64,000 bases of DNA, taken from positions 14,139 through 78,138 of the forward strand of contig CAIYRH010000007.1 in the NCBI GenBank assembly GCA_903928565.1, in the 5' to 3' direction. The notes under the pieces were generated by a model, which was not told the origin of the DNA, made no database searches, and was given only the letters and a program-made list of their open reading frames with translations. Position 1 is the stretch's first letter; each line of letters opens with the position of its first letter. The position numbers were made by a program, and so were the translations under genes. Of this stretch, positions 23,101 to 48,262 are shown piece after piece. The stretch comes from Candidatus Staskawiczbacteria bacterium (GTDB taxonomy: Bacteria > Patescibacteriota > Minisyncoccia > Minisyncoccales > Staskawiczbacteraceae).

Positions 23101-24513
23101 TATCTCGGAATAAAATTTAATTTGTTGCCACAAATTAATTCCTCTCCATTTTATTGGGTCTATGACCATTACCCCTTGTGCACCATAATCTTGTCCATTG
23201 GGGGCAACTATTTTTTTTATGTTAGAACATTGCTCGTCTGCGCTCTGCGAAGCATTAGTAGCCAGTGGTACACGGTCTTCTCCTGCTTGTTGTCCGGGTT
23301 CGGGTGTTGTGTTGGGGCACCTAAATTCGTCTAACCCATTATATCTTCTGGCACAAGTGTGAGTGGAGAGGTCGCAACCTTCCACCTTAATAATCTTAGA
23401 CCCGCCGCCGGCTACAGAAAAGGTTGCTGTAGCCTTACAGTCGCCATCTGTATTGCAAACCTGTTCGCAGGGCTTTCCGTTTACGTCCTTGTCGCTGGGG
23501 GTAGCACCACTAGTATCTTGTTTGCAATTTACGTGAACATAAATGGGGCCGTGTTCAATTTGGTCTTTAACTGACCAAGGGTCGCCATTTGATTCTTTAA
23601 GCGGTTGGCCGGTTTTTAAATCTTTTAACGGTTGGCCGCCTGAAAGGGCTACGCTTGGGCAACAATCTTTTGTGTCTGGAGGTTGTTTACACGCACCGCC
23701 AACGCAACTTCCTCCGCACGAGCCATTTTGTTGCAACTGACAACCACCATTGGCGGGGTCGCAAACGGGACTGCATTTTGAAGAGCCATCGGGGTTTGCA
23801 CAAGAACAGGTGTCCATTAGTTTTGTTATTTCAGCACCCAACAATGCAGCAACGTTGGCTTTTTTCTGCATGCCTTCAACGAATTGTCTTAAACAAGCAA
23901 CTCTATCTTGGTTAACAAAATCTTTAGAAGTGGGCTGTCTGTTTGAACCGGTTTCTTCAAACGGACTGGGCGTTGCGTAGTCTCCATATTTATCAAAATC
24001 AGTGCAAACGCTAGTTCTAGTTAATAAGTTTTCGGTTAAAATTCCTATTGGAATTTCATTATATGTGGCAACAATTACGCCCGGTGGAACAGCTGTGTCG
24101 TTGCTAGAAAAAGGATTTAAATTAAGTTGTGGCAGAAAATCAATTTTACAACTGCCAATGTTGGGGTTTATTGTATATAAAATTAAAGATGAGCAAACAA
24201 TAATTAATAACCCCAATATTCCCGCTTTTACCCAGGCCTTGCCTTCGTCTGTAAATTTTCCTTGGCCATAGGAAATTAAATAGTAAATTCCTCCAACAAC
24301 AATTGTGGTAACAGCAATTGTTATGGCTAAAATAAGGCCCGCATTAAATAAATAACAAACAAAGTCTCCAATTGTAGAATTGTTATTTAAAGATTTACCA
24401 AGAAAATCTGGGTATTTAACTTCTAAAGTTACCGCAGAAATAAAACTGGCGCGTAGCAAAAAAGCACTTAGCGCGAAAAAGTATAAAGCAAATTTTTTAC
24501 GAAATAATGCCAC
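20131..24513 (-). CDS. Giant (1460 aa) cysteine-rich surface protein with an N-terminal T4SS pilin-like module
   Basis: N-terminal module CYLFNAGLILAITIAVTTIVVGGIYYLISYGQGKFTDEGKAWVKAGILGLLIIVCSSLILYTINPNI. The remaining ~1300 aa contain about 99 Cys (manual count) in CxnC-dense blocks, plus Pro/Thr linkers (PPDTPDTPPTTPSDPG). No TM segment after the module. Confidence 0.6.
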   Translation of the reverse strand: MALFRKKFALYFFALSAFLLRASFISAVTLEVKYPDFLGKSLNNNSTIGDFVCYLFNAGLILAITIAVTTIVVGGIYYLISYGQGKFTDEGKAWVKAGILGLLIIVCSSLILYTINPNIGSCKIDFLPQLNLNPFSSNDTAVPPGVIVATYNEIPIGILTENLLTRTSVCTDFDKYGDYATPSPFEETGSNRQPTSKDFVNQDRVACLRQFVEGMQKKANVAALLGAEITKLMDTCSCANPDGSSKCSPVCDPANGGCQLQQNGSCGGSCVGGACKQPPDTKDCCPSVALSGGQPLKDLKTGQPLKESNGDPWSVKDQIEHGPIYVHVNCKQDTSGATPSDKDVNGKPCEQVCNTDGDCKATATFSVAGGGSKIIKVEGCDLSTHTCARRYNGLDEFRCPNTTPEPGQQAGEDRVPLATNASQSADEQCSNIKKIVAPNGQDYGAQGVMVIDPIKWRGINLWQQIKFYSEILPMWAQGQGFKEDADNLQAARAQLAKCYLAMPYADLISAYKVAPQKDRVVLRQTSAYQDFTTGQAVNASQYCTGFNYNNSTCLKHCNDDCPDTGDGAIQAYGDCDSGSTSGGSGDQVASCVQNAYKTRPCTKGTGDSATFSECITACQSSLKEVCARNYPSCSPEYNNCYQWAGDNGQCVLNNLGKCLFDTQGAKNFANCAKLDSTDKGNINFCINNAYSCKNGSDEFAGYKDCVNTPLSLNCASYNNSLQCSSANGIGNGLWGGCVWNPDICVNKSSSAVCNKAKNQASCTGSCEWKQAQCAGAAACTGLDQTSCTNDTTDQCAWQPANCTVSSTCATFGDPSSCNGSSKCKWQTGTCSQDYSASFLWQKKSVQKCTASGVPATSGKCTSSSNPDATCQEVCPETSKCPTASDCAACPCDKIDKPITFYVPDRSTAISKKDCSSNADCPINQNSTQPSTPGQPSATSQSIAGELCSTDSPSTAAPGATSVPTGSAPANGLNACTITGARCQTDDECFQDQVCVENICMSSGKNAIPCTDDSDCVEEGETCSPTKNVCVTNAGNEKSGTETPNIAIYQMVGPQCNTYSYNDDPLTFYCQDNWWADPQKEGTANPATPVGKEKTCDKGGDIPIGQTVDNALAWANNVFANVELMAKDAQLVLDQMTKIGKAKDTEPVKNYCTCSAQYGNGEPICNTDCKYSQSQSQVPICAPAPPDTPDTPPTTPSDPGCIPNNYQNCVPAGSIYWGNLYWFDSCGNQGSYIAPCIPSPFNWNLPTYNPAPTFPYNNSSKNITASLLGTSANNKIISDIQHFDINNHNPFVLAENGCPPGQVQTGTEQAELGSCDLVPCKGSPCQQVVDYNSQLWNAYKKLKTDYMSFDVNIIKEPRSDILKQLTYSRQQANTCSVNNTIVGGADTRLLSCSRAEDELLPPINQDKLNFGGKDYTGYCYGKNLGNAAGKDLTDDWMCCHEWNDKQVENNNPIYNIKNKNY

Positions 24514-24537: not shown

Positions 24538-26343
24538 TTAATTTTGAGCCGACTCTAAATTTTTCTTTGCTTCTCTGTTTTGTAAAACTTCTTGCGGGTT
24601 TGTTGTAATTATTTGAGTTTCTGTTTGGCTGGCAACTACAGAAAGGAAAACGTGTTTTTTGCCTGCAAAAAATAACCCCTCACCCACCGCAGCTCCCAGC
24701 AATAAATATTTTTCTTGTTCTGTAAGTTGAAAAGTTTTTTGCACAGAATCAATGTCGGCGGTTGATTGCTTCATTAAAAGTTGCAAAGAAGAGTTTGTAA
24801 TAATTGCTTTTCCGTAATCAGACTTCATAAAGTCTGCAACGTCTTGAGTAATTGTTGTAACACCCAGCCAATATTTTCTTCCTCTTTTAACAATTCCAAA
24901 TAAGAAAGAGGCGCCATCGGGTGACTGCATAAGCCACCAGGCCTCATCAATAACCAAAAGTCTTTTTTTCAATTTTTGGCGCACAATATTCCAAATGTAA
25001 CGCATAATAATGTACAAAGCAATTGGCCTTAAAGATTCTTCCATGTCTCTTATGCCAAAAACAACCAAGCTTTTATCCATGGAAATATTTGATTGCTGGT
25101 TAAAGAAATCGGCAAAAGTTCCTTTTGTAAATTTTCCAATACGTTTTACTAAAGAATCTGTGCCAGTCATGCTTTGTAAAATTTCTTCAAAGTCAGACAT
25201 TAAGGGAATGTTGTTTACCCAAGTTTGTGGGTCTGAATCTACGGTAATGTCTCTTACGGCATAAGTTTGCGTTAAAGCTTCATCTAAAATGCTGTCTTCT
25301 TCTGGAGTTAGCCCGCCCAACATAATGCGTAAAAGCCCAACCAAGTTTATAACGTTAGACCTTAAAATATCTGCTGGGTTGTCGTCTGGCCCAGGAATTG
25401 GTAAGTCAAACGGATTTACATGATTTGGTGAAGTTAAAGAAATTTTTAAGAATGCTCCGCCAACTGCGTCGGCTAAAAATTCATATTCATTTTCTGGGTC
25501 AACAATTATGCAGTCTATGCCTTGCATTAAATATCTTAAAATTTCCAGTTTAATGGCAAAAGATTTTCCCGAACCAGATTTTGCAAAAACCACCATGTTG
25601 GCATTTTCCAAACTAAACCTGTCAAACAAAACCAAAGAATTATTGTGACGGTTTATGCCATATAAAATTCCTTCGTTAGAACTTAGGTCAAAACAAATAA
25701 ATGGGAAACAAGTTGAAAGTGGAGCGGTGTCCATTGGCGTGTGCACGTTAATTAAGTCCATCCCATACGGATTGCAAGAAATAAAACCTTCTTTTTGTTT
25801 AAACAATGCCGGCTTTATATAAATTAACCTAGACTCAAAAATTGAACGCAAAGTTAATTCGGTGTCGCGCAGTTCTTTTTCTGATGTTTCATAAATTGTA
25901 ATATACAAACCCAGCCTAAACATTTTTTCTTGGGCAGTCATTAAATTATCTCTTAAGGATTCAATGTCTTTGTAGGCGGTTTCAAGTGCAGGGTCTCTAA
26001 TTAAGCCCTTCTCTTCCCTTTCCAATAATTCTGAAGAAACTTCTGTAACTTTTTTTCTTAACTTTTTTAAAATTAATTCACTGCTTACCGGATGAATGAA
26101 AAAAGAAATATCCATTGGAGTGTTTAAATCTATAACAGGTGAAAACCAACCGGTATTTAAATAACGGGGATAAGAAAAAACGAAAAAAGATTTGGCCAAC
26201 CTTTCGCCAAGTTTTATGTGGTCTTGTAAAACCCCAATATATGGTGGAGCAATAATGTCTTTTACATCAAAAGACTCTTCTTTAAAAATTTGCCCAGTTA
26301 GGTCTTTTTCTTTTTTCCCCAATATATTATCTAAAAGTTTCAT
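24538..26343 (-). CDS. virB4: VirB4/TrbE/CagE-family type IV secretion ATPase
   Basis: Walker A VVFAKSGSGKSFAIK and Walker B RLLVIDEAWWLM. The N-terminal region (FVFSYPRYLNTGWFSPVIDLNTPMDISFFIHP) is typical of Gram-positive-type VirB4 homologs. 601 aa. Confidence 0.85.
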   Translation of the reverse strand: MKLLDNILGKKEKDLTGQIFKEESFDVKDIIAPPYIGVLQDHIKLGERLAKSFFVFSYPRYLNTGWFSPVIDLNTPMDISFFIHPVSSELILKKLRKKVTEVSSELLEREEKGLIRDPALETAYKDIESLRDNLMTAQEKMFRLGLYITIYETSEKELRDTELTLRSIFESRLIYIKPALFKQKEGFISCNPYGMDLINVHTPMDTAPLSTCFPFICFDLSSNEGILYGINRHNNSLVLFDRFSLENANMVVFAKSGSGKSFAIKLEILRYLMQGIDCIIVDPENEYEFLADAVGGAFLKISLTSPNHVNPFDLPIPGPDDNPADILRSNVINLVGLLRIMLGGLTPEEDSILDEALTQTYAVRDITVDSDPQTWVNNIPLMSDFEEILQSMTGTDSLVKRIGKFTKGTFADFFNQQSNISMDKSLVVFGIRDMEESLRPIALYIIMRYIWNIVRQKLKKRLLVIDEAWWLMQSPDGASFLFGIVKRGRKYWLGVTTITQDVADFMKSDYGKAIITNSSLQLLMKQSTADIDSVQKTFQLTEQEKYLLLGAAVGEGLFFAGKKHVFLSVVASQTETQIITTNPQEVLQNREAKKNLESAQN

Positions 26344-26363: not shown

Positions 26364-27026
26364 TTATTTTAGTAATTCTGGTAGTATTTCTGGATAGTAG
26401 CCAATTTCGGCTTGGTCTGGGTGGTGAATAGACCAGAAAAGTTCTATGAGTTCGGGCGTTGTAAGTGGCACAGCTTCCAGCCCGCACCTGCGCAACCCCA
26501 TGGAAACATATTCCATTCTTTGCCAAAGTTGCGTTTTGCACCTTTGGAATTCTTCTTCGCTAATTGGTTTGCTGTTTTTCCCACTTCCGGGCGCATCACC
26601 AAAGTTCAATTTTTTTTGTGTTCCTTTTAATCCAAAAATTTCCATTAAGTTGTATGGAATTACAATGTAAAAACTTTTTGTCATAACCACATCCCCCACC
26701 ACCATTTCTTTTATAAATTCTCTGTAAGAAGAAGTTTGTTTTTTTAACAAAGCGTTTGTTTGTTTTTCTTCTAAATCTTTTAAGCTATCTAAATATGGCG
26801 TTATGTTTATGTTTCTTGATTGAATAACAATTTGGCAGAAAAAATCTAAAGAGTTTAAAAAGTTTTGAAAAGCAAAAATTGTGGCAGTTTGTTCTTCCTC
26901 GGATTTTAGTGCAAAATTTATTGAAGAGGTCATTAAAATTCCTCTAATAGAATTATTTTTCAAAAGCAAAACACCCTCTCTAATATCTTGTACTTCTAAA
27001 AATGCTTGTGTTGCTGATTCGGCCAT
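26364..27026 (-). CDS. T4SS-locus protein of unknown function (no NTPase motifs)
   Basis: 220 aa. The N-terminal pattern FLEVQDIREGVLLLKNNSIRGILMTSSINFALKSEEEQTATIFAFQNFLNSLDF..QIVIQS recalls N-terminal regions seen in some VirB4/TraE-type proteins (from memory, low certainty). Confidence 0.4.
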   Translation of the reverse strand: MAESATQAFLEVQDIREGVLLLKNNSIRGILMTSSINFALKSEEEQTATIFAFQNFLNSLDFFCQIVIQSRNINITPYLDSLKDLEEKQTNALLKKQTSSYREFIKEMVVGDVVMTKSFYIVIPYNLMEIFGLKGTQKKLNFGDAPGSGKNSKPISEEEFQRCKTQLWQRMEYVSMGLRRCGLEAVPLTTPELIELFWSIHHPDQAEIGYYPEILPELLK

Positions 27027-27043
27027 AGCGTTGGGTAAGTTTT

Positions 27044-27499
27044 AATTTCTAATTTTTAATTTATATTAAAGTTATATTTAGTTAAGTTTAATTTTATTAT
27101 CAAGCGTGTTTGTTGCTTTTTGGAAGATAAGATGGAATTCATGTGCTTCTTGCCATAACTTCATTATTTTTTCTTTATGTTCGGGGTGATAATTTGATAA
27201 TAATCTTAACCAATATTTTGTTTCATTCGCCTCTTTTTTAGAAATGTAAATTTTATTTCTAAAATCTTTTTTTGAGCTGGACGCATTTGCTTCATAGTAA
27301 TTTGCTCCTATTGATGTGGCTGCTCTAGCCAACTGACCGACTAAATTTTTATTAATATCATCTATTCTAAGTTTTTTTATAAAGTCTAAAATATCTTCTG
27401 AAAACTTCGCAGTTCTCTCTTCTAGGTTATATGTTTTATTATTTATAACTTCGTTCATTTTAAAATTTAATAGAAATTAGAAATTGAAAATTAGAAATT
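27044..27499 (-). mobile_element. Candidate insertion cassette 1: four-helix-bundle gene bracketed by a 19-bp inverted repeat made of stop-containing heptads
   Basis: 27044-27062 aatttctaatttttaattt versus 27481-27499 aaattgaaaattagaaatt (18/19 complementary). Heptads tagaaat/tagaaat/tgaaaat/tagaaat at 27471-27498. The cassette fills the gap between the PrgI-like stop (27499) and the 220-aa start (27026). Confidence 0.4.
27078..27458 (-). CDS. Four-helix-bundle protein (23S rRNA intervening-sequence protein family)
   Basis: LARAATSIGANYYEANASSSKKDFRNKIYISKKEANETKYWLRLL is the family core motif. 126 aa. Confidence 0.8.
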   Translation of the reverse strand: MNEVINNKTYNLEERTAKFSEDILDFIKKLRIDDINKNLVGQLARAATSIGANYYEANASSSKKDFRNKIYISKKEANETKYWLRLLSNYHPEHKEKIMKLWQEAHEFHLIFQKATNTLDNKIKLN

Positions 27500-27906
27500 C
27501 ACTTCGTCTTCAGGTCTATTAACGTTTTTGTTCTTTTTAATTGGCTTGTTTGCGCTTGTAAAACAGGACCCTGATCTATTTTTTTAATTTTAGTGCGGGA
27601 AATTGGTTTAAACGGATAAGGCGATTCTTTTTTCTTCCATGTGTAATTTTTACCTCCCATTGAAAACCCAATTGAGCCCAAAATAACATTTAAAATTGGC
27701 GTGCCATTTATTGTTCCAAATGCCAAAATTGCAGAAATAATAAAAAGTATTACAGACACTATATAAAAAACCGGTTTTGGTAAAAGGTAATATAAAAAGA
27801 AAGAAAGAATCCCCGCCCCCACCAAATAAAAGAATTGCCTAAATGATATAAAGAAAGCAATTTTACTTTCGGACTCAATAAATTGTGGAATAGGATATTG
27901 CTCCAT
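27499..27906 (-). CDS. PrgI-family / VirB3-like small T4SS membrane protein
   Basis: IPQFIESESKIAFFISFRQFFYLVGAGILSFFLYYLLP followed by a second TM helix. Size (135 aa) and position upstream of virB4 match Gram-positive PrgI/VirB3 analogs. Confidence 0.6.
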   Translation of the reverse strand: MEQYPIPQFIESESKIAFFISFRQFFYLVGAGILSFFLYYLLPKPVFYIVSVILFIISAILAFGTINGTPILNVILGSIGFSMGGKNYTWKKKESPYPFKPISRTKIKKIDQGPVLQAQTSQLKRTKTLIDLKTK

Positions 27907-27910
27907 GATT

Positions 27911-28378
27911 GTTGAATTAAGAGTTTTGAATTTTGAATTTCGATTAAAATTTGAATTTCTAATTTTAAAAATTTATTTCATAGATGAGATGATTTTTCCG
28001 AATATAAAAGTAAGTTCTTGAGTTTCGCGCCATAAAACTTCAGCTTCATTTTTTCTGCCAGGTTCGCATTCTGTTATCATCTTTAACCAATGCATTGTTT
28101 CTTGAGCTTCTTTTTTGCAAATAAATATTTTATTTTTGAAATCTTTTCTAGAACTTGCGGCATTTGCCTCCATGTAGTTTGCCCCAATACTCGTTGCAGA
28201 TCTAACTAACTGGTTTATTAGCGGCCTACTTATGTTGTCTTCCATAATGGTCCTACAAAATTTGATAGTGTTTCCGCCAAATCTCGAAGTTCTCTCTTCT
28301 AGGTCGTATTTATTGTTCATAAAATTTCGAAATTAAGTCATTTAAAATTTATTCGAAATTCGAAAATCAGAATTCAAC
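27911..28378 (-). mobile_element. Candidate insertion cassette 2: four-helix-bundle gene with imperfect inverted arms of tgaattt-type heptads
   Basis: The left arm starts gttgaatt (27911) and the right arm ends aattcaac (28378). tgaattt units at 27927, 27934 and 27952. The reverse complement of the right arm reads gttgaattctgattttcgaatttcgaataa. Confidence 0.35.
27973..28320 (-). CDS. Four-helix-bundle protein (same subfamily as 27078-27458)
   Basis: LVRSATSIGANYMEANAASSRKDFKNKIFICKKEAQETMHWLKMI. 115 aa. Confidence 0.8.
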   Translation of the reverse strand: MNNKYDLEERTSRFGGNTIKFCRTIMEDNISRPLINQLVRSATSIGANYMEANAASSRKDFKNKIFICKKEAQETMHWLKMITECEPGRKNEAEVLWRETQELTFIFGKIISSMK

Positions 28379-28453
28379 ATTATTTTATTATACCATAATA
28401 ATTATTAGTAGATACAAGCGTTATTCACATGTGCAATGCGCAGGGCCAAAGTA

Positions 28454-28482
28454 TTGACAAGGTGCCAATAATATGATATAGT
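28454..28482 (+). promoter_or_regulatory. Strong sigma70-type promoter of the SPFH gene (TTGACA-17-TATAGT with TG extension)
   Basis: ttgaca aggtgccaataatatga tatagt. The -35 element is part of an inverted repeat, ttgacaaggt (28454-28463) / accttgtcaa (about 28497-28506). Confidence 0.5.
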
Positions 28483-28590
28483 AATGGCATCAATGAACCT
28501 TGTCAAATACAGCTTTAGAAGGTTTGGGGTGTACCCAACCGGCTGTCATTTGATTGTTTTGAATAGTAGCAACAGAAAGGAAAAACAGAG

Positions 28591-30027
28591 ATGAAAATCA
28601 TGAAATGGGTTACGCTTGGCGTCGTGTTGTTGAACTTTGTCTTCGCTCTCGCTTGGCTCTATGCCACCAAAGCCAGTTTCGTCTGGTGGGTGGTGTACGG
28701 CACAGCGATTGTCATTGCACTTGGCATCTGGTGGTTTGTAAAATCACCGGCCACGGCGCGATGCGCGATAAAGGCACTGTTCACGGGCACGCGGCGAGCG
28801 GCAACGGCAACATGTGGAGTAGGTGCTCCTCTGCTGGCCCGACTAGTGGCGAAGGCAAAGACTGTCGGCAAAATCCTTTTTTGGATTCTGTTGGTAATCA
28901 TTTTCGCCTTTGTCTTCAAAGTCCTCTACGGTGGCAATGCCAGCTTTGGACAGTGGCTGGTCTACTACCTCGCTCTGGCATGGGTGTTTGGTGGTTTAAG
29001 GACCATCGGCACCGCTGAGGTCGCACTTCAAAGCCGTTTTGGTAGCATCAAGAAAAAGATCTACCGGAGCGGTCTCACGTGGGTCCCCCCATTCCCAGGG
29101 ATAAGCCTCTACCGGATCACGACCGAGCCGATAACATTCAAGTTCGAGGGAGTAGAATCACACAGCTTGCGGTGTAAAGATCGCTTGCTGGTGTTTGCCG
29201 ACATTGTTGGGAACATACGGTTCCCCTATGATGAAATTGACTCTCTCATCTTGATGATCAAGTCGAAAGTCCCGCTCGATGAGGCAGGGCTTCAGAATAA
29301 GGTCGAGGAAGAGGTGGTTAGTGGCATGAGGGGAATTGTGGCCAAGTTCTCCCTTGAGGAAGCCTTGGCAAAGGATAACCTCGAGGAGATTAGAAAAGCA
29401 GCTCAGACGTTCTTGCTCAGAAAAACCGGCTACTTCGCAAAGGCCGGGATTTGTGGCAATAACGGTAAAAACTTCACGCCAGGTACTGGTGAGGTTATCG
29501 TGCGAATTGAACAAATTCGTACGACTCCAGGGTTGGAAGCGGCTCTGCAAAAACCCGCGATTGCCAAACTTGAGGCCGAAGCCGCGAAATCAACACAGGA
29601 ACGGGACGCAGCTCTTATAGCCGGTCCGTTCCATGTTGCGATGGCTGAGTGGGTCACCGCTCAGTTGCCCGCAGATAAGAGCAAGTCCCCCGAGCAGGTA
29701 ATGGCAGAACTCGTTGAGAGCGGTGCCTACTCCGCACATGCAACGGTCGTAAAAGACCTAATGCTAGCTAATAGCGGGCATCTCCAAGTCGCCAAAATGG
29801 AAATTGGTGGGCCGGGGGGTAAATCGCTCCCCGACAGTCTCCAGTATTTGTCATTAGGCGGTGGCGGAGGCGCAGGCCTCATGCTACCTGGCGGGCGTCG
29901 TCAACCTCGCCAAGTGGGCGGCGGAAAACCAAACCCGTCGGCAGAACGATCAGCGTTCTTCGAGAAGAATTACGGCATTAAGCCGACCCCCGAAGACATT
30001 GCTGACGATGACGATAGTGGCTACTAG
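28591..30027 (+). CDS. SPFH/Band-7 (stomatin-prohibitin-flotillin-like) membrane protein, high-GC
   Basis: Four N-terminal TM helices. SPFH-type core (GTAEVALQSRFGSIKKKIYRSGLTWVPPFPGISLYRI...), an Ala/Glu-rich coiled coil, and a Gly-rich tail (GGGGGAGLMLPGG). A sampled line (28801-28860) is 60% GC versus 20-25% in flanking lines. Confidence 0.65.
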   Translation: MKIMKWVTLGVVLLNFVFALAWLYATKASFVWWVVYGTAIVIALGIWWFVKSPATARCAIKALFTGTRRAATATCGVGAPLLARLVAKAKTVGKILFWILLVIIFAFVFKVLYGGNASFGQWLVYYLALAWVFGGLRTIGTAEVALQSRFGSIKKKIYRSGLTWVPPFPGISLYRITTEPITFKFEGVESHSLRCKDRLLVFADIVGNIRFPYDEIDSLILMIKSKVPLDEAGLQNKVEEEVVSGMRGIVAKFSLEEALAKDNLEEIRKAAQTFLLRKTGYFAKAGICGNNGKNFTPGTGEVIVRIEQIRTTPGLEAALQKPAIAKLEAEAAKSTQERDAALIAGPFHVAMAEWVTAQLPADKSKSPEQVMAELVESGAYSAHATVVKDLMLANSGHLQVAKMEIGGPGGKSLPDSLQYLSLGGGGGAGLMLPGGRRQPRQVGGGKPNPSAERSAFFEKNYGIKPTPEDIADDDDSGY

Positions 30028-30091
30028 CTTAACGGGTGGGTCCAATCCCCACAAAACAATCATGCGGGCGTAATTCCCGCGAAACAAACAA

Positions 30092-30141
30092 GGGGCGGTT
30101 GCAATCGACGTAATGTCGAAAGCACCCGCCCCCCTTTTTTT
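30092..30141 (+). terminator. GC-rich intrinsic terminator of the SPFH gene
   Basis: GGGGCGG (30092-30098) pairs with CCGCCCC (30126-30132), enclosing an inner tcgac-gtaat-gtcga hairpin, followed by T7. Confidence 0.55.
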
Positions 30142-30157
30142 ATACCTTTATTTTTTT

Positions 30158-30574
30158 CTATTCTATTGGCTCTCTGTAGGCGTCTGGGCCTTGGTTCTGT
30201 TGAACAACCGGTGGAGCTATATTTTCTAAAGGTTTTTTAATTCTAGGCTTCCTGACAACAGGAATTTTAGGATTTATTTCACTTGCCGCTAATTTTTCTG
30301 CAATAGGCACAAGTTTACTTATAATTTCCGCATAAATGGTGCTTGCAGTTAATGCTGGTATGTTTAGTTCTGTTGCTAAAAAAGTGCATATGTCTTTTTC
30401 GACAGCGCCATCTACTACAATTTTTTCAACAGCACTAATAATAATTTGCCCTTGCAAGGGTTTGTTGTTAGATAATTTCTCTAAAATATCTTCATTAGAT
30501 TCTTCTATTTTGTTATCTTGAAGAATTTTTGTAATTATAGGAAACGTATCTTCTTTGAAATTTATTTTTTCCAT
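30158..30574 (-). CDS. Hypothetical protein of the T4SS-like locus
   Basis: 138-aa ORF immediately downstream of the VirB6-like gene. No TM helix or recognisable motif. Confidence 0.45.
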   Translation of the reverse strand: MEKINFKEDTFPIITKILQDNKIEESNEDILEKLSNNKPLQGQIIISAVEKIVVDGAVEKDICTFLATELNIPALTASTIYAEIISKLVPIAEKLAASEINPKIPVVRKPRIKKPLENIAPPVVQQNQGPDAYREPIE

Positions 30575-30596: not shown

Positions 30597-33077
30597 TTAT
30601 CTTCTTGGATGGTTTCTCTCAAAATCGGCTCCTGGCGGAATTATTATTCTTGGGCCTTCTGGCGCCGGTGTGGCATTGCCGCCACCTCCTCCTTCGCCTC
30701 GTGTGTCGTCGTTTTTTCTTACTCTTCTCGTCGCTTCTTTCATGGCGTTAAAGCGTTCAACAGCTTTTTCTTGAGCTACGGCGTCACCATGCTGGAGCTC
30801 TCTTAGGTGGTCATTAAAAGCATTTGTAAATGCAGCCACTTTTTCATCATTTCCATTTCTAAGCAAGTTTGTCATTTGGTTGGTGCCAGCGTATTTAGCA
30901 AATGTAGGCATAGCTTCTTTTGGTAATTCCAAAACTTTATCCGTTGGCATTTTCTTAATGGCTTTTTCAATTCTTTCCTCACCCAACTTTTCTTTTCTCT
31001 TTATAATGTCTTCAGATTTAATGTTATTTCCAAAAGTGACAATTTGTTTTGCCACAGCTTCTTTAGACATACCCGAAGTCGCCAGCCTTTCTTCTTCTTT
31101 ATCCATTATGCTTCTCTTCGCCTCGGCATCGGAAACTGGGGCAGTTATTCCTAGGGCGCCCTCTATAGTTCTTCGGTGTCTTATCGTTCGGCTAGCATTT
31201 TCCATGTCGGTAGCTGTAACTCCTTCCCCTTTCATAGAATGTTTAGCTATTTTGATTGCTCCTTTTTCAGATATGCCTTCTCCAACCTTTTTATCGATGC
31301 GTTCTTTCAATATATGTGTCATTATTTCTTCCTTTGATGGAGTAGCTCCTGCTGTTGGGCTGGCTTTTCCTAATAATTCTTTTGAAACACCAAATGATTT
31401 AGCATAAGCAATAGCTTCTTCTCGTTTTGTTGAATCAATGGCGCTAAGAGCATTCCTCTTGGCTAATATTTGCACTGCCGAGGCTTTTTCTGCTGCTTTT
31501 GCGGCGGTTAATGGTTTCTGTGCAGCAATTTTACCAAGCACTTCGTTGTCTTGAATTGCGTCTAATTTAGCCAAAGGATCTTTCATTCGGGCAGCCTGGT
31601 TAGAAGCAGTTGTGCCTTGCGGGACAATACGAATTCCTGTTGCCATACCAAATTTTTCTGCTGCATTAGTAGCAAAATCTTTTACTTTTTGTCCGCCCCT
31701 TTGTGCGGCTCCGGCTACCCCTGTTAATTTTGCAGCTCCCGTGAGCCCCCCCATTGCTAACATTGCTCCGCCAGAAACTAGCCCAATGGCAGCGGTGCTC
31801 GCCATTTTTGCAATGCCGGTTTTTTGTGAAGTCATTTTAAACCCTACAACTAAAAATCCTAATACAATAACAACTTGAGTTATTAACTGTCCGGCATTTG
31901 GCGTTGTGGTAGACGGCGAAGATAAAGTAGCAATTGGCTGATTCAAAAGGCTTTGTGTAGTCATTACAGTGGCGGCAAGCCACAAAACAAACGAACCAAT
32001 TACGCCAATGAAGACCCATTTTAAAAAGTGGCCCCACCACTCTGTCCATAAATGTCTTGAAGCCGGGAAAACCCAAAAAGTAAATGCCAAGGGCGACAAA
32101 ATATATAACATTATTAAAATTACATATCTTGCCAATAAAATAAAAAGTAAATAAAAATAAGTAAAAGCAATTCCCAAATAAACCACTCCGAACATAGCAC
32201 ACAAGGTTACATAATTAAAAATACCCGATGCTGCGAGATCATTAGTAAGTAAAGTTTTTGTGGCAATTTGTAGGCGGAATAAAAGAATGGCCGGGCCACC
32301 AATTACTGGTATTGTGGCAGCTGCTGTCTGTCCTGCTCCTTGTAGCCCCATTCCAGAAAAGGAACTTGTTATTAAATTTGCTGCATCTATTAGCAACCCG
32401 CAGAATAACCCAGAAAAATTAATTGCTAAAGCAACTAATATTAAGGGCAGTAAAAGTTTTTTTGCTTCATACTCTCTAAGTCTTAAAGCAGTAGCAATGC
32501 CAACTACAACAAAACCCAAAACAATAAGCATGTTGCCCAAATTTCTTACTTGCGCCCAAGCTTTGGTAAAATCTGCACCACCGTTGGAACTTTGGTCTGT
32601 TGTTATTGGTGCACTTAAATAGTTAATTAAAATAAAGTTAAGTGAAGACATGGCTGAGCTGGCTATCATATATGGGCCATCAACTAAAACATCACCAATT
32701 AAACCGCCAAGCCATTTAAACCCTATGCCCTCGTCAAATGGTGGGTCTTGGAGCCTTGTGTTTTCAGCCGTACTTTCATAGGCCTTTTGTGCAGCAGCGG
32801 TTCCAGTGCCAGGCCCACAAAAAGACATAATCCATTCCTGAGCATTGGCGACGGTATTTCTACTATTGAATATTTTTCCCACTGCTAATGAAAGGTCTAC
32901 AAAACCACGGGCTACCGAACTTCCAGCTGCATTGAGCATGCCCTGATTATTCCATTGCGTGCACCAAGGAGCTAACCCGTGTGCTACAACTGGAGATAAA
33001 AATCCTATAGATAGCGCAAGTAAAAAGGTAAAAGCAGTTAGTTTCTTATGTGCTAAAAATTTAGAGAATAAATTCAT
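30597..33077 (-). CDS. VirB6/TrbL-like polytopic T4SS membrane protein with a long hydrophilic C-terminal extension
   Basis: Signal peptide, then a periplasmic segment, then at least 7 hydrophobic helices (FTKAWAQVRNLGNMLIVLGFVVVGIATAL...LILVALAINFSGLFCGLLIDAANLI is TrbL-like). A ~370-aa Ala/Lys/Glu-rich tail ends in GEGGGGGN. Confidence 0.6.
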   Translation of the reverse strand: MNLFSKFLAHKKLTAFTFLLALSIGFLSPVVAHGLAPWCTQWNNQGMLNAAGSSVARGFVDLSLAVGKIFNSRNTVANAQEWIMSFCGPGTGTAAAQKAYESTAENTRLQDPPFDEGIGFKWLGGLIGDVLVDGPYMIASSAMSSLNFILINYLSAPITTDQSSNGGADFTKAWAQVRNLGNMLIVLGFVVVGIATALRLREYEAKKLLLPLILVALAINFSGLFCGLLIDAANLITSSFSGMGLQGAGQTAAATIPVIGGPAILLFRLQIATKTLLTNDLAASGIFNYVTLCAMFGVVYLGIAFTYFYLLFILLARYVILIMLYILSPLAFTFWVFPASRHLWTEWWGHFLKWVFIGVIGSFVLWLAATVMTTQSLLNQPIATLSSPSTTTPNAGQLITQVVIVLGFLVVGFKMTSQKTGIAKMASTAAIGLVSGGAMLAMGGLTGAAKLTGVAGAAQRGGQKVKDFATNAAEKFGMATGIRIVPQGTTASNQAARMKDPLAKLDAIQDNEVLGKIAAQKPLTAAKAAEKASAVQILAKRNALSAIDSTKREEAIAYAKSFGVSKELLGKASPTAGATPSKEEIMTHILKERIDKKVGEGISEKGAIKIAKHSMKGEGVTATDMENASRTIRHRRTIEGALGITAPVSDAEAKRSIMDKEEERLATSGMSKEAVAKQIVTFGNNIKSEDIIKRKEKLGEERIEKAIKKMPTDKVLELPKEAMPTFAKYAGTNQMTNLLRNGNDEKVAAFTNAFNDHLRELQHGDAVAQEKAVERFNAMKEATRRVRKNDDTRGEGGGGGNATPAPEGPRIIIPPGADFERNHPRR

Positions 33078-33161: not shown

Positions 33162-33663
33162 TAGTTTGTAGTTTGTAGTTGGTAGTGAGTAGACGAAAAG
33201 CTAATCTCGCTAATTAATCTTTTAGTTCGTGAGTCAATTTATTTAACATGCGCATTATCTCAGATAATAAGTTTTCAATTTTTTGATAATCTTCGGCTTT
33301 CCCAAATTTCAGTCGTTTTGCAATTTCTATTTGAGTTTCTAATTCCGCGCCAGATCCATAAGCAGTTAAAAGGAAGTTTCTAAAATCTTTTCTTGAACTG
33401 CGTCGGCTTCCCTCGGCGATATTAGAAGGGATAGAAACCGAGGCTCTACACATTTGAGAAGTTAATCCATAAATTTCTTCTTTTGGGAAATTTCCAGTTA
33501 ATTTATAAACTAGAACAACTAAATCCATTGCCTTTTGCCACACAATTAGATTTCCATAAGATTCTATTCCCATATATTTGATTTTAATATTTTCTACAAA
33601 CTACTCACTCTTTCTACAAACTATTATCCTTTCTACAAACTACAAACTACTCACTACAAACTA
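33162..33663 (-). mobile_element. Candidate insertion cassette 3: four-helix-bundle gene bracketed by inverted tagtttg-type heptad arrays
   Basis: Left arm 33162-33192: tagtttg tagtttg tagttgg tagtgag tag. Right arm 33594-33663 has the reverse-complement words (ctacaaactactcact, ctacaaacta, ctacaaactacaaactactcactacaaacta). TAG codons fall in all three frames on the inward-reading strand of each arm. Confidence 0.4.
33214..33573 (-). CDS. Four-helix-bundle protein (classical 23S rRNA-IVS protein type)
   Basis: YGLTSQMCRASVSIPSNIAEGSRRSSRKDFRNFLLTAYGSGAELETQIEIAKRL. 119 aa. Confidence 0.8.
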   Translation of the reverse strand: MGIESYGNLIVWQKAMDLVVLVYKLTGNFPKEEIYGLTSQMCRASVSIPSNIAEGSRRSSRKDFRNFLLTAYGSGAELETQIEIAKRLKFGKAEDYQKIENLLSEIMRMLNKLTHELKD

Positions 33664-34473
33664 TCTGTAAGGTTTTTCCAGTCTTCAATGCTCAATGTTT
33701 GGGCGCGTTGGGTTGGTTGAATATTATTTTTTAGAAGCCATTCTTCAACTTTTGTTTTTTCTAGTTTTAATATTTTTGATAAATTCCCCCCAAGCTGTTT
33801 TCTTGGTTGTGAAAAACCAGCTTTAACTATTTTAAAGAATTTATCGGGAGAAGTCAGACCTCCTGTCGGGCGAAAGGTTTGACTTCGGGGAGTAATTTTT
33901 ATTATTGCAGAATCAATTTTTGGTGCTGGCCAAAAACAATTTTTTGAAACATAACTTATAATTTTTGGCGTTGCATAAAATTGCACAGAAACGGCCAACA
34001 AGTTCATGTCCCCCACCGTTGCACAAATTCTTTGTGCCACTTCTTTTTGAATCATTAAAATTATTTCTTGCGGTGGATTGGGGTGCCCTTCGGGCCGTTC
34101 TAAAAATTTTCTAATTAACGGTGAAGTTAAATAATAAGGAATGTTTGCTATTAGTTTGTAGTTTGTAGTGAGTAGTGGGTAGTCTGCAAGATTAATTTTT
34201 AAAATCCTTAATAGTTTCTTTTAAAATTGTTTGCATTGCCGAACTTTTTTCAACAGCAATAATTTTTTTTGCACGGCTTGCTAATTCTTTTGTTAAAACT
34301 CCAATGCCCGGCCCCACTTCTAAAATTGTGTCTGTTTTTTTTATGTCGCCCGCTTCAACTATTTTTCTTAAAACATTTTCATCTATTAAGAAATTTTGCC
34401 CCAAACCTTTTGAAGCGCGTGTTTCATATTTTTTGAGAAGCTCTTTTATTATTGTTGGAGAAGTTAAATTCAT
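33654..34473 (-). pseudogene. rsmA: 16S rRNA (adenine1518/1519-N6)-dimethyltransferase RsmA/KsgA, split by a frameshift
   Basis: ORF 34192-34473 carries the SAM motif (LGQNFLIDENVL, ILEVGPGIGVLT). The next frame (+1) continues ...NLADYPLLTTNYKLIANIPYYLTSPLIRKFLE...MIQKEVAQR to 33654. The frame break is at the A-run/TAA at 34192-34200, next to an embedded heptad repeat (34152-34183). Confidence 0.6.
34152..34183 (+). repeat. tagtttg-type heptad repeat embedded inside rsmA
   Basis: tagtttg tagtttg tagtgag tagtggg tagt. Read on the coding (minus) strand it encodes DYPLLTTNYKL. Confidence 0.6.
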
Positions 34474-34541: not shown

Positions 34542-37343
34542 ATGAATAAAGAACAAATAGTCAAAATAAAATTATGGCTTGCCAAAAACAAGCTATTGAT
34601 ATTGTTTTCTGTTTTTGTGATAGCAACATACGCTTTCATTGGAGGGCACATTGTAGAAAATCAACAAGCCTCTCTTTCAACCGCCCTGCAATCTTCAAAC
34701 TATGTAATTTCCCCTATGAATTCTGCCACGGGCATGGGCATTGTCACAAAGTTAGATAATGTTTGTAATTATGGTCCAGCTGTTGACCAAATTAATAAAA
34801 TTATCAATTCAATTGATTACCAGTCCCAACTGGCAATTAAAGCATACAAAACATCTAGTTGTGCAAATGGAAATAAAAGTACAACTCAACCCTGCATCCA
34901 AATAGAAGACACCTTATCAAATCTTTTTATCTCTCGAGCTTCGTATTCGCAAGAATTAGACAGAATAAATTATCAGGCAAATCAAAATCATTGCGGGACG
35001 CCTGTTGCATATAATAATAAAACAGATAAGAAATTTAATATATTAAACAATTCCTTAGGTGCTCTGGCGAATATTGTATTAGCTGTGACAAACAGTTCAA
35101 CTTTACATGCAAATTGTACTGTGCCAAGTAACAACATAACGGTTGGTATGTCAGTTGTTTACAGGGCTTCGGTATCTGGTGGAAGTGGAAATTATTCATA
35201 TACCTGGGCAAATAGTTGGTCTGGACCAAGTGCAAATGGAAGCACAATGTCTAAAACATTCACAGCTCCAGGCATTTATACAGCATCTGTAATAGTATAT
35301 TCTGGAGCAACATCTGCTACAGCTTCATGCCCCAGTATAACAGTGGCGCAAACATCAGGAACAGGAACAAACACCGGCATAGGTACCAATACAGGATCCG
35401 GCACGAACACTCCATTAAGTGCAACTTGTTCAACAAGCTCATCATCAACAATATTAAGCAGGGCTGTAACTTATTCTGCTTCGGCATCCGGGGGGAATGG
35501 AATATATTCATATAGTTGGTCGGGGCCTTTGGGCAATACGGCCAGTGTATCAAGAATATTTCCATCTGCAGGTACATACTCTGGGTCTGTTACCGTCAGT
35601 TCTGGTGGGCAAACCGCTACAGCACTTTGCCCAACAGTAACGGTTACATCAACAACTGGAGGAGGTTCGGGCGCGGGATCGGGGACGGGCACAGAAACTG
35701 GCACAGGAACTGGCAATATAAATTTACCGGCAACTAATAACGTAATTCGTCCCGTTAACGATCCTGTAGGATTATCACTTAATATCGTGGAATCTGCTTT
35801 GAGTTTAGGTGCGAATGGAGGAACAGACTTTGGTTGGTTAATTCAACAAACAACAGATAGTAAATTTAATACTGCCATTTCTGGTGGATTTACATACACA
35901 CCAACTAATCAGACGATGAGGGCATTGGTTGTTTCGTGGTTAAATTCAAGAATAAATAGTTTTAATACTTCATTGCCAAGCGTGCCGGTGCCGCCTTCGT
36001 CCGATGTTCTTGTGGATATTTTAATGTATCCTGGAAATATCAATAACAAGTTAGGTGTTGGAGCAACTGATCCGTCATCCTTCATAAATTCTACAGATGG
36101 CACAATTTTCTCTCTTAATAAATATGCCACAGTTGCCACTTCTGCAATCTCAAAATTAAATTCTATACAGCAAACTGCCACGTCGTATGGCTTCTCCGAT
36201 GTTGCTTCACTCGTTCAACAGCTAATTACCAAAACACAATTAATTATTGACCTTAATCTTTACGGGCAAAATTCTCCGGGCACTTTAAATCAAGGGGGTC
36301 AATTAAAACTTAATATAAAGACAACGGATCAACTTAATTCTTTTATTGATGGAATCAGTTTTTCAAATAATAATAGCAAAGAAATCGTCAGACAGAATTT
36401 AGAAAATAATATTAAAGTGCCCAGCAATATCATTACTGTGTATTTTGATACTGCAAATAATCCACGAGATGATAAATACAATTCAAAGATAGGAAGATAT
36501 CAAGATTATTATGTGGAGGACGAAGTGATTGTAAATACTCCGATGTGTGCGAGAGAAATATTGGCCGATGAACAAAATGTGGTTCAGAACGATCCCCTAC
36601 CTGAAGATTCTTTTTTGGGAGACAATAAAGATGGAATATGTTCCATACTTTCTGCAGCAAAATCTCTAGAAGATGATTTGTCGTTTAATGACGGCTCTTA
36701 TCCTGGATATCCTAATCCCACACTAAACTCAAATTCCGATACCCTCCCCAGGAATACAAAAGTTTGGAGTTGCCCATTTCTAGAAAAAATAACTCAGGTT
36801 GCCGGAGTGCCCTCTGGCCCCAGTGCCGTACAACGGCTAGATTTTTATACAAAAAATTTAACTAAGGCAACCAAGGTTAACCAATATTTTTTCCCGCCCA
36901 ATCTTAATGAGGAGTTTATTAAATGGTTTAAAAAAAATGATGGCAGAAATTGTACATTTAATTCCTACATAAAAGTTGATGACCAATTCTTTGGTCACTC
37001 GAGTCATATAGTAGACATTAAACAGGAAAATGGTAAATATAATGTTGTGATTGATAATATGCTTGATCAAGGAGAAAAGCAGAGTGTGTTGGGCGCCGAT
37101 GGAAAAGTTAAAAAAATTAATTGGTATGTTAATGCACCAGTAGATCCGGGGCAAACAACTTTGCAAATAGACTTTGCAGATAATAAAACTTTGACATGGG
37201 TGAAGGACAGTAAAAATGTGCGGGGTGATGCGGGAAATTTTTGGAGAAATATTAAGCTAACTAGTTGGATAATTGATTGTGTTGTTCCTGAATACCCGGG
37301 TAAAACCCCACTGCTCCCACCCCAGGATGTAAGCGATTTTTAA
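34542..37343 (+). CDS. Large secreted/anchored protein with two tandem PKD/Ig-like repeats
   Basis: N-terminal TM anchor. Two ~90-aa repeats (CTVPSNNITVGMSVVYRASVSGGSGNYSYTWANSWSGP...CPSITV and CSTSSSSTILSRAVTYSASASGGNGIYSYSWSGPLGN...CPTVTV) separated by GTGTNTG linkers. The ~550-aa C-terminal region is unassigned. Confidence 0.55.
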   Translation: MNKEQIVKIKLWLAKNKLLILFSVFVIATYAFIGGHIVENQQASLSTALQSSNYVISPMNSATGMGIVTKLDNVCNYGPAVDQINKIINSIDYQSQLAIKAYKTSSCANGNKSTTQPCIQIEDTLSNLFISRASYSQELDRINYQANQNHCGTPVAYNNKTDKKFNILNNSLGALANIVLAVTNSSTLHANCTVPSNNITVGMSVVYRASVSGGSGNYSYTWANSWSGPSANGSTMSKTFTAPGIYTASVIVYSGATSATASCPSITVAQTSGTGTNTGIGTNTGSGTNTPLSATCSTSSSSTILSRAVTYSASASGGNGIYSYSWSGPLGNTASVSRIFPSAGTYSGSVTVSSGGQTATALCPTVTVTSTTGGGSGAGSGTGTETGTGTGNINLPATNNVIRPVNDPVGLSLNIVESALSLGANGGTDFGWLIQQTTDSKFNTAISGGFTYTPTNQTMRALVVSWLNSRINSFNTSLPSVPVPPSSDVLVDILMYPGNINNKLGVGATDPSSFINSTDGTIFSLNKYATVATSAISKLNSIQQTATSYGFSDVASLVQQLITKTQLIIDLNLYGQNSPGTLNQGGQLKLNIKTTDQLNSFIDGISFSNNNSKEIVRQNLENNIKVPSNIITVYFDTANNPRDDKYNSKIGRYQDYYVEDEVIVNTPMCAREILADEQNVVQNDPLPEDSFLGDNKDGICSILSAAKSLEDDLSFNDGSYPGYPNPTLNSNSDTLPRNTKVWSCPFLEKITQVAGVPSGPSAVQRLDFYTKNLTKATKVNQYFFPPNLNEEFIKWFKKNDGRNCTFNSYIKVDDQFFGHSSHIVDIKQENGKYNVVIDNMLDQGEKQSVLGADGKVKKINWYVNAPVDPGQTTLQIDFADNKTLTWVKDSKNVRGDAGNFWRNIKLTSWIIDCVVPEYPGKTPLLPPQDVSDF

Positions 37344-47432: not shown

Positions 47433-47486
47433 GCGCCTTAGTTAATTTATATAGATAGTATAAGCTATTTTCTCGGTTTTGTAAAG

Positions 47487-47557
47487 TGCCCCTACTCAGA
47501 ATCGGACTGAGATTGACTGCTTAAGAGGCAGCTACTTTACCATTAAGTTATAGGGGC
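47487..47557 (-). tRNA. tRNA-Lys (anticodon CTT)
   Basis: Manual cloverleaf: GCCCCTA-TA-ACTT-AATGGTA-AAGT-A-GCTGC-CTCTTAA-GCAGT-CAAT-CTCAG-TCCGATT-CTGAG-TAGGGGC-A. No encoded CCA. Confidence 0.85.
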
Positions 47558-47790
47558 ATGATATTATGCAAAAACTCTTTGCCGAAGCCACTTTTAAAAT
47601 ACTTCTCTCTTTTTCTGGCTTCTGCTCTGTTTTTACAAGCTTCTTTATATATTATTTTAAATGGTCTTCTGTATTTTGTGGATTTTGTCATTCCAGAGTT
47701 ATGCCCGATTAATCTTTTTTCGGGATTTTCAGAAATGCCTATATACAGATGTTTATCTTTTATGCTTTGTAGGGCGTAAGTATACCACAT
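47548..47790 (-). CDS. GIY-YIG nuclease superfamily protein (small stand-alone YhbQ/UPF0213-like)
   Basis: MWYTYALQSIKDKHLYIGISENPEKRLIGHNSGMTKSTKYRRPFKIIYKEACKNRAEARKREKYFK (GIY...YIG, R, E, N motifs). Its last 10 nt overlap the tRNA-Lys(CTT) 5' end. The track ORF extends upstream through tRNA-like sequence and was trimmed. Confidence 0.75.
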   Translation of the reverse strand: MWYTYALQSIKDKHLYIGISENPEKRLIGHNSGMTKSTKYRRPFKIIYKEACKNRAEARKREKYFKSGFGKEFLHNIMPL

Positions 47791-47800
47791 AAATCTCAAA

Positions 47801-47858: not shown

Positions 47859-47870
47859 ATAAAATTGGGG

Positions 47871-48236: not shown

Positions 48237-48262
48237 GTTTTAAAGTGCCCTCGCCAGGACTC

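Follow-up and report, generated by a model that had tools for sequence, protein, structure and literature searches.

An antisense SPFH/Band-7 gene in a probably replaceable slot of a dnaA-proximal type IV secretion locus of Candidatus Staskawiczbacteria

The slot gene and its locus

We analysed a stretch of 64,000 nucleotides from Candidatus Staskawiczbacteria (contig CAIYRH010000007.1, positions 14,139 to 78,138; hereafter the window, with W denoting its copy of the locus), in which one GC-rich gene on the plus strand, encoding a protein of the SPFH/Band-7 superfamily, lies inside a type IV secretion system (T4SS) locus whose surrounding genes are all on the minus strand. Of 22 related Patescibacteria loci, several of them labelled Candidatus Staskawiczbacteria, 21 have a homologue at this position, which we call the slot, likewise in antisense, and the gene order is VirB4-TrsD-PrgI, slot gene, p138-VirB6-like. 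We consider it likely that the gene encodes a membrane-anchored SPFH protein that resides in a replaceable slot of this dnaA-proximal T4SS, and that the allele found in W came from the same clade. The features of the region are as follows, in window coordinates.

24538-26343, minus strand: VirB4-like ATPase, part of the conserved locus core, 71-94% identical in relatives
26364-27026, minus strand: TrsD/TraC-like protein, part of the conserved locus core, 62-92% identical in relatives
27499-27906, minus strand: PrgI/VirB3-like gene, conserved left neighbour of the slot, ~40-85% protein identity to relatives
27921-28375, minus strand: four-helix-bundle (4HB; 23S_rRNA_IVP / TIGR02436) cassette 2, open reading frame (ORF) 27973-28320, with 54-nt AT-rich inverted repeats on both sides
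28387-28395, minus strand: candidate extended -10 box (TGGTATAAT) of the divergent PrgI-TrsD-VirB4 operon, from motif recurrence and alignment
28454-28482, plus strand: slot gene promoter, TTGACA, 17 nt, TG-extended TATAGT, 11/12 match
28495-28552, plus strand: structured leader RNA, from individual folds and a covariance model
28591-30027, plus strand: slot gene coding sequence, 'type A' allele, 478 aa, SPFH/Band-7, from ORF, Pfam, AlphaFold2 and family alignment
30034-30052 and 30064-30080, plus strand: two small GC hairpins in the 3' untranslated region, from folding
30092-30132 (stem) and 30135-30141 (run of seven T), no strand assigned: nested GC-rich hairpin terminator, from folding
30158-30574, minus strand: p138, small soluble protein of 138 aa, function unassigned, convergent with the slot gene
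30597-33077, minus strand: polytopic VirB6/TrbL-like protein of 826 aa, 28-47% identical to relatives, in the fast-evolving right-hand part of the locus

The locus also holds VirB2-like pilin genes and a 1460-aa protein; dnaA, dnaN and yidC lie 10-15 kb from it, and PrgI homologues of 73-94% identity carry the NCBI name Candidatus Staskawiczbacteria. A chromosomal MPF-FATA-like T4SS near dnaA has been described for Patescibacteria (Quinonero-Coronel et al. 2025, PMC12102498), and the window resembles it in having VirB4, TrsD, PrgI/VirB3, VirB6 and VirB2-like pilins, in its chromosomal place by dnaA and in the absence of a relaxase; it differs in its SPFH/Band-7 component, which is unmentioned in that survey (PMC12102498). 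In our literature search no paper was found that links SPFH proteins to the Candidate Phyla Radiation in this context, and there seems to be no earlier description of the antisense slot gene, of its leader or of its allele types.

As the initial annotation had proposed, the 478-aa product of ORF 28591-30027 is an SPFH/Band-7 protein: Pfam Band_7 (PF01145) matched residues 138-340 with 42.5 bits, above the cut-off of 23.6 (E = 9e-11), and the match spans profile positions 2-176 of 176, which places the protein in the SPFH superfamily. The four N-terminal transmembrane helices, coiled coil and poly-Gly tail of that annotation were likewise recovered, as three strong hydrophobic helices (residues 7-25, 28-46 and 95-113) with a weaker fourth (~119-136), a long helix (313-357), and a disordered, Gly-rich, basic tail (~419-445) that stands between a small helical C-domain and an acidic C-terminus. 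The helix at ~119-136 directly precedes the SPFH domain, as a membrane anchor does, and most family members have just one such helix (60 of 93 by one count, 29 of 43 by another). The AlphaFold2 model, with a confidence score (pLDDT) >90 over residues 130-390, consists of an SPFH alpha/beta core (strands 136-210 and 301-311) followed by the 45-residue helix 313-357, and Foldseek matched this arrangement of alpha/beta fold and long coiled-coil helix to HflK/C, stomatin, prohibitin, erlin and flotillin, whose solved complexes form cages, with a probability of 1.0 (E = 1e-11 to 1e-8). When a sequence profile was compared with PDB sequences, the match to HflC/K was weak and limited to the anchor region (E = 8e-4). 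The loop at 47-94 is strongly basic (9 K/R, zero D/E); basic residues also follow the anchor helix in most members examined, which suggests that the SPFH domain is on the cytoplasmic side.

A word-indexed homologue search gave one relative, and the family was defined by an exhaustive phmmer search of 1.84 billion representatives, which yielded 92 relatives, 30 of them below 1e-30 and most of them 350-400 aa long. Because there are only 92 such relatives among 1.84 billion proteins, we regard the slot family as a separate small family. Its alignment displays a common domain order, the motif SGICGN...PGTGEV...RIE and the poly-Gly tail. The slot protein shares with known SPFH scaffolds (HflK/C, stomatin, prohibitin, erlin, flotillin, QmcA) an N-terminal anchor, the SPFH alpha/beta domain and the long coiled-coil helix, but it is just 13-17% identical to solved members, and its family departs from them in the motif, the extra helical C-domain and the poly-Gly/basic/acidic tail; this copy has in addition ~110 N-terminal residues with three more hydrophobic helices. 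The locus holds a single SPFH gene, and neither a second SPFH gene nor an FtsH gene was found in it, unlike the HflK/HflC-FtsH module; moreover, the SPFH domain of HflK/C is periplasmic, whereas that of the slot protein is predicted to be cytoplasmic, as in stomatin and flotillin. It is also not a stomatin/QmcA-NfeD operon, its neighbours being p138 (convergent, no Pfam hit) and the 4HB/PrgI gene (divergent), nor a flotillin, since Band_7 is the only Pfam hit and the C-terminal region is made up of the family's own helical domain and poly-Gly tail. A phage, defence or mobile-element origin was considered and dropped: a search of viral contigs found the family absent from them, PADLOC models gave only RmrA (E = 0.007, without a qualifying stretch), and PHROGs gave only phrog_200 'lipoprotein' (E = 8e-5), a generic SPFH-like match.

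The description of the gene as a self-contained antisense unit also held. Its promoter is the best-scoring site of the region, with 11 of 12 positions matching and the TG present, and the -35 box is included in a 9-nt inverted repeat formed by TTGACAAGG (28454-28462) and CCTTGTCAA (28498-28506). The leader, measured from the -10 box to the ATG, is ~100-108 nt long, and at the other end the nested terminator folds with -43.8 kcal/mol (z = -3.6; none of 200 shuffles folds as well). The sequence TTGACAAgg...TATGATATAAT stands upstream of the slot gene in L006, L009, L010, L013, L018, L020, L024, L025 and L028-L030 (related loci are given by number), and the order of A-run, hairpin and T-run (AAAAGGG...CCCTTCTTTTTTT) is conserved in relatives; among the loci inspected, a TTGACA...TGnTATAAT promoter and such a terminator were present with both of the allele types described below. 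The terminator is probably bidirectional and common to the slot gene and the convergent p138. By eye, a small hairpin between stop codon and terminator was seen also in L004, L006, L008, L012, L013 and L024.

Within the leader, a single-stranded GAACNUUGWMAAA motif is followed by a two-tier hairpin with an outer ACAGC/GCUGU stem and an inner GC-rich stem. Folded individually, 11 of 12 leaders adopted this architecture, with stem sequences that differ between loci, and a covariance model built from seven leaders and searched against 236 kb gave matches in nine loci, of both allele types, with a single match in each that invariably lies upstream of the slot gene. In the resulting alignment, which is fitted to the model and holds only nine sequences, 87% of cells were paired and 7 of 11 pairs carried double changes, whereas none of 500 shuffles reached the observed value and slid controls gave 30-56%. 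At E <= 1 the model missed the more divergent leaders of L004, L009, L010, L022 and L025. RNAalifold applied to MAFFT leader alignments gave no result, the stems being out of register, and individual folds and the covariance model were used instead; at the Rfam gathering score the leader had no match, and the whole window gave four tRNAs only.

On the opposite strand, an ATTATA(C/T)CA motif recurs in relatives 30-60 nt upstream of PrgI, and positions 28379-28409 of W are 93.5% identical to 5935-5965 of L030, which lie just upstream of PrgI there. We infer from this recurrence that the box at 28387-28395 may work as a promoter element of the PrgI-TrsD-VirB4 operon. In the window the 4HB cassette stands between PrgI and this candidate box.

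Slot occupancy and alleles

Related loci were reached by two routes, through the slot protein itself (L006, L008-L010, L013, L017-L022, L024, L025 and L027) and, independently, through PrgI homologues on long contigs (L028-L031), where the slot was occupied in three of four. The contexts covered comprise three GTDB genomes (labelled Patescibacteria, Staskawiczbacteria and Saccharibacteria), eleven metagenome loci and seven looked-up family members (P0002, P0003, P0007, P0012, P0014, P0059 and P0086; E = 1e-70 to 6e-6), all seven of which are in the slot. In the loci reached through the slot protein the flanking genes are plainly orthologous, at 71-92% protein identity for VirB4, 62-87% for TrsD and 40-79% for PrgI. 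Among relatives whose context was read, none lay outside the slot between PrgI and p138-VirB6-like, so that the position of the gene in the virB4 neighbourhood is conserved. Checking presence and absence in relatives, which the initial annotation had suggested for what it took to be an inserted island, thus gave the opposite of an island's pattern, the site being filled in all but L031; at the borders of the gene in the 64-kb window, flanking direct repeats, a tRNA and an integrase were not found. We conclude that the slot gene is the normal resident of this T4SS slot and very probably not an inserted island.

The empty slot of L031 (5304-6411) has its own organisation. PrgI starts there 20 nt after the p138-like gene, and VirB6-like, p138, PrgI, TrsD and VirB4 form an unbroken gene string without divergent promoters, leader or terminator.

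The proteins encoded by the occupied slots vary widely. Those of type A, the type found in W, are 25-55% identical to one another, and this identity is uncorrelated with that of the flanks (Spearman 0.13, p = 0.5; VirB4 71-92%); in the type-A comparison the VirB6-like protein (28-47%) and p138 (27-54%) vary as the slot protein does. p138 evolves fast save for its conserved C-terminus (24-54% identity) and is the GC-poorest gene of most loci, with a GC content at third codon positions (GC3) of 0.12-0.29; the conserved 3' end of its gene is TTATTCTATTGGYTCTCT. The L025 homologue of the VirB6-like protein matches Pfam TrbL_3. In L028, L029 and L030 the slot holds a second type, type B, an opposite-strand GC-rich gene (0.50-0.54) encoding 392-417 aa, which tblastn with the W slot protein misses and which is homologous to type A only in the C-terminal ~130 residues (hmmsearch E = 1e-12 to 1e-26; hhalign probability 98.8%).

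A neighbour-joining tree of the flanking VirB4, TrsD and PrgI proteins (1062 columns, 200 bootstraps) grouped W with L028 and L029 (99%) and these three with L030 and L031 (97%). Only W among these has a type-A allele, and the other type-A carriers fall outside both supported clades. Because its nearest flank relatives carry type B or nothing, the type-A allele of W was most likely installed by recombination from a clade member. Positions 28384-28516/28557 of W, which span the divergent promoters and the first part of the leader, align to L028 and L029 at 71-79% nucleotide identity; from there on, no homology to these two loci is left in the coding sequence, in the terminator, in p138 or in most of the VirB6-like gene. 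In our reading, promoter, leader and p138 3' end constitute a conserved backbone, and the coding sequence behaves as a replaceable allele of at least two types that is sometimes lacking; TTATTCTATTGGYTCTCT is a possible anchor on the other side of the cassette. The most parsimonious reading is that the window lineage swapped a type-B allele for a type-A allele from the same clade, the donors presumably being related Patescibacteria and not a host.

In replacement-type flexible genomic islands, such as O-antigen, pilin and capsule loci, variable alleles are exchanged between conserved flanks. The slot is like them in its fixed position, its conserved flanks, its non-alignable alleles that are incongruent with the flanks, and its atypical composition. 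It differs in being a single gene whose product is predicted to face the cytoplasm rather than to be surface-exposed, and in an upward shift of composition that is uniform across alleles, which such islands usually lack.

The initial annotation had placed the gene directly next to cassette 2 and at an insertion hotspot. The adjacency to the 4HB cassette at 27921-28375 is correct, and a hotspot is borne out by the 4HB cassettes of the window, by an insertion of 5 kb with toxin-antitoxin genes in L008 and by the replacement or loss of alleles in the slot; the hotspot for insertion is the intergenic region rather than the SPFH gene. Cassette 2 sits between the presumed PrgI promoter and PrgI and is absent there in L009, L010, L013, L018, L022 and L028-L030. 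In L008 the insert (3482-8381) occupies the same intergenic position, between PrgI and slot gene, and carries a HepT/MNT toxin-antitoxin pair, an AbiEii-type toxin, an NYN-domain protein and others. Three 4HB genes lie within the window's T4SS locus (27036-27493, 27921-28375 and 33214-33573, all minus strand), one of them weakly bAvd-like, and AT-rich inverted repeats of 35-54 nt border two of the three; 4HB cassettes occur at other positions of the locus in L025 and L030, and by eye the region between PrgI and slot in L028 has similar AT-rich repeats without an ORF.

Two further observations concern the wider locus and its pilins. The 1460-aa protein (20131-24513, minus strand), downstream of VirB4, has a pilin-like N-terminus and is only 36-38% identical overall in L028, L030 and L031, with local identity up to ~50% in L029; because it diverges to this extent while VirB4 stays at 85-94%, genes that evolve fast lie on either side of the conserved T4SS core. 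Another VirB2/TrbC-like pilin gene (47871-48236, minus strand; region 47486-48401) lies 15 kb from the locus, between tRNA-Lys(CTT) and tRNA-Arg(TCG), and overlaps an ORF with a GIY-YIG nuclease domain (47548-47892).

Base composition of the slot gene

The atypical composition that had drawn attention to the gene is real, at ~53% GC rather than the 60% first stated. Over the whole gene GC is 0.534 and GC3 ~0.59, as against a GC3 of ~0.30 in the neighbours, and in 300-nt windows GC is 0.49-0.57 within the gene and 0.27-0.36 in the flanks. The remaining ORFs of the 64 kb have a GC3 of 0.23-0.42, with the sole further exception of 37543-39093. When GC3 was corrected for amino-acid content by means of the window's own codon usage, 0.327 was expected and 0.585 observed (z = 6.9), so that codon usage, which the initial annotation had suggested comparing, does deviate. 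The dinucleotide signature distance of the gene, 145 against 80 +/- 24, is exceeded by just 3 of 120 windows, all three of them in the 34.5-39 kb region; by both measures the gene is atypical. The background genome nearly avoids NTC codons (GTC 0.04, CTC 0.03, ATC 0.05 and TTC 0.14 of their synonymous families), uses NCC and NGC codons normally and has an under-represented TC/GA dinucleotide (0.77). This avoidance is absent from the slot gene, where GTC rises to 0.41, CTC to 0.31 and ATC to 0.35, as does CGG to 0.29 (0.04 in the background); in two-fold boxes, too, C-ending codons are preferred (TTC 0.67 vs 0.14, TAC 0.77 vs 0.29).

The GC excess is a property of the clade. The slot gene is GC-rich in 17 of the 18 occupied loci with measurable composition, the exception being the most remote member, L027, and its GC3 lies above that of every flanking gene in all 14 type-A loci (0.40-0.60, with flanking genes at 0.17-0.53) and in all three type-B loci. 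Both allele types have a GC of 0.43-0.54 in genomes whose GC3 is 0.2-0.3, and the GC3 of the slot gene hardly follows that of the background (Spearman 0.10). With 17 GC-rich lineages, the high GC is not the footprint of one recent transfer into the window genome. The numbers in the names of Staskawiczbacteria bins in the NCBI taxonomy, which we take to be GC percentages, run from 32 to 43, and for this reason there is no obvious donor within the group.

We looked for a force that might raise GC in this gene. In an Akashi-type accuracy test, GC-ending codons were weakly enriched at conserved sites (odds ratio 1.22), and G-ending codons are raised as much as C-ending ones. Because both classes are raised, and only weakly more at conserved sites, these results tend to speak against classic translational selection; the window contains no ribosomal-protein or elongation-factor genes for a codon comparison. 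GC-biased gene conversion is unlikely, by reasoning only, inside non-homologous segments whose divergence would prevent heteroduplex formation. In their dinucleotide signatures the slot genes of different loci resemble each other and not their own genomes, a result to which we give little weight because the measure is not independent of GC.

The second composition outlier of the window, at 37543-39093 (plus strand), is a 516-aa ORF with GC 0.56, GC3 0.63 and z = 7.4 that has weak BNR/sortilin-type repeats; in a homologue search its best matches were BNR-like and just 26-31% identical, and an ORF with a PKD domain lies at 34542-37343. Nearby, the KsgA/RsmA (RrnaAD) gene (33654-34473, minus strand) is broken into two frames near 34200, its N-terminal 93 and C-terminal 177 residues aligning in different frames to an intact 279-aa orthologue; it is a frameshifted pseudogene or the product of a sequencing error, and a similar split occurs in L008. 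KsgA is followed directly by an M23/LysM gene in L009, L013 and L017, and a GC-rich BNR/sortilin-like gene adjoins it in L028 (0.52) and L029 (0.45). The BNR-like gene beside KsgA may be a second fast-evolving, GC-rich gene of the neighbourhood, and so a hint of a class of such genes.

Origin and possible role

The initial annotation had read the gene as a recently acquired single-gene island, inserted at a hotspot, whose donor would be a high-GC organism not of this lineage, conceivably the host of an episymbiont. Atypical GC, GC3, codon usage and dinucleotide signature, the self-contained unit from promoter to terminator, an allele incongruent with the flank tree and the lack of any named Staskawiczbacteria bin as GC-rich as the gene would all fit this reading; nevertheless we hold it to be very unlikely. 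All 92 homologues form one small family, every one whose context was read is in the same slot of low-GC Patescibacteria and, L027 apart, similarly GC-rich, the same GC excess recurs in 17 lineages, promoter and leader are common to relatives with a different allele type, and the mobility signatures are missing. With the best matches all in the same low-GC lineage, the claim of a host-derived island fails; what stands of the proposed horizontal acquisition is that the allele of W apparently came from another lineage, and the donor pool would be related Patescibacteria. That a high-GC fragment of another organism was joined into a low-GC contig during assembly is extremely improbable. The switch in composition is abrupt at both ends, and other assemblies with the gene are short (2-2.6 kb), but the exact slot protein is encoded on five further contigs from other samples and assemblies, three of which are 100% identical to the window over 28186-30220 (L002), 28186-30148 (L003) and 27830-30214 (L001). 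Because both junctions are thus reproduced in three independent assemblies, the gene is not an assembly chimera; the same arrangement is also found in >20 related loci, among them loci on long contigs (738 kb and 845 kb). Vertical inheritance only, with very fast evolution, types A and B sorted from ancient polymorphisms and a high GC that selection on the gene maintains (acting for example on translation kinetics, on mRNA stability or on codon choice), is in our judgement unlikely. It would account for slot occupancy that extends from the window to lineages as distant as L027 and L022, for a GC excess in every lineage that looks like a persistent gene-specific force and not like repeated arrival, and for the strong preference for C-ending codons in two-fold boxes and the strong promoter; however, W is nested among type-B and empty genomes, so that several independent sortings would be needed, the codon evidence against translational selection applies here as well, the pilin genes have ordinary GC3, and the W-type block of L001 (27830-30214) adjoins a PrgI region only ~68% identical to that of the window.

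As to function, in the mechanism that we propose the slot gene would be transcribed antisense from its own strong promoter through the structured leader to the terminator that it has in common with p138; the protein, like other SPFH proteins, may then form an oligomeric ring or cage at the membrane, on its cytoplasmic side, and this assembly might scaffold or gate the inner-membrane platform of the T4SS or the co-varying VirB6-like protein and p138. Such a scaffold or gate is suggested because the slot family is exclusive to the slot and co-varies with the VirB6-like protein and p138; the link to the adjacent secretion machine that had been proposed at the outset is strengthened by the strict synteny. 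SPFH microdomains are reported to host or assist secretion machines in several bacteria: HP0248 and the Cag T4SS in H. pylori, the VirB T4SS in Agrobacterium, and FloA and the type VII secretion system in S. aureus (PMC8656257; PMC5460342). In these precedents the SPFH genes are unlinked housekeeping genes, whereas the slot gene lies within the T4SS locus and has been found nowhere else. The protein could instead be a scaffold of the HflK/C, QmcA or flotillin kind that serves membrane quality or stress responses in general, with no specific tie to the T4SS and in its position by chance, which we rate as quite unlikely. SPFH proteins are generalists, and those of Agrobacterium co-fractionate with the T4SS in detergent-resistant membranes and yet are not required for its function or localisation there (PMC8656257); L031 lacks the slot gene and still has all T4SS genes present as ORFs. 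A chance position is, however, at odds with a family found nowhere but in the slot, with the failure to find FtsH, NfeD or a second SPFH gene nearby, and with a slot gene that evolves as fast as the adjacent VirB6-like and p138 genes.

Several points weigh against a T4SS-resident SPFH protein whose allele in W came from within the clade. Its function is deduced from family membership and synteny only, its cytoplasmic topology from the positive-inside rule alone, and, because L031 does without it, the gene is dispensable to the locus. In type B, the first 230 residues cannot be shown to be SPFH: one protein of the three gives a Band_7 match, below threshold (E = 0.011). The tree of the flanks was built by neighbour joining from three linked proteins and is not a species tree, so that lineage sorting of long-lived alleles could mimic replacement, and the best relative of the W allele is only 44-50% identical. 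The persistent GC excess is left unexplained by a slot with exchanged alleles.

In L001, identity to the window falls to ~68% within PrgI (positions 1-210, equivalent to 27620-27829 of the window), and the PrgI there resembles that of other lineages. Either this contig is a natural recombinant with the same cassette, or sequences of two strains were joined during assembly at a conserved k-mer; its weight is suggestive only.

A more speculative extension, to which we assign a low probability, is that the slot is a dedicated site of allele exchange: promoter and leader on one side and the p138 3' end on the other would act as recombination anchors between which GC-rich SPFH-like cassettes are swapped among lineages, the cassette together with the VirB6-like protein and p138 would give the secretion machine its specificity or compatibility (in host range or self/non-self, for instance), and the GC excess would mark a separate gene pool or a gene-specific force.

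The feature is best described as joining known kinds, namely a scaffold protein of the SPFH type, an accessory gene of a T4SS and a variable locus of the replacement type. Few systems have been shown to be essential to the epibiotic life of Patescibacteria, and the T4SS is among them, according to a paper that cites work on Southlakia epibionticum (PMC12102498). For one clade of these bacteria the slot protein is a concrete new candidate for a T4SS component or regulator beyond VirB4, TrsD, VirB3, VirB6 and the pilins. One half of its locus, that of the motor, is highly conserved and the other is hypervariable, and alleles appear to move between lineages. The clade-wide GC3 excess may reflect an evolutionary force or a gene pool that has so far gone unrecognised, and atypical GC in Patescibacteria is by itself no sign of acquisition from a host, which calls for caution in screens for horizontal gene transfer in episymbionts.

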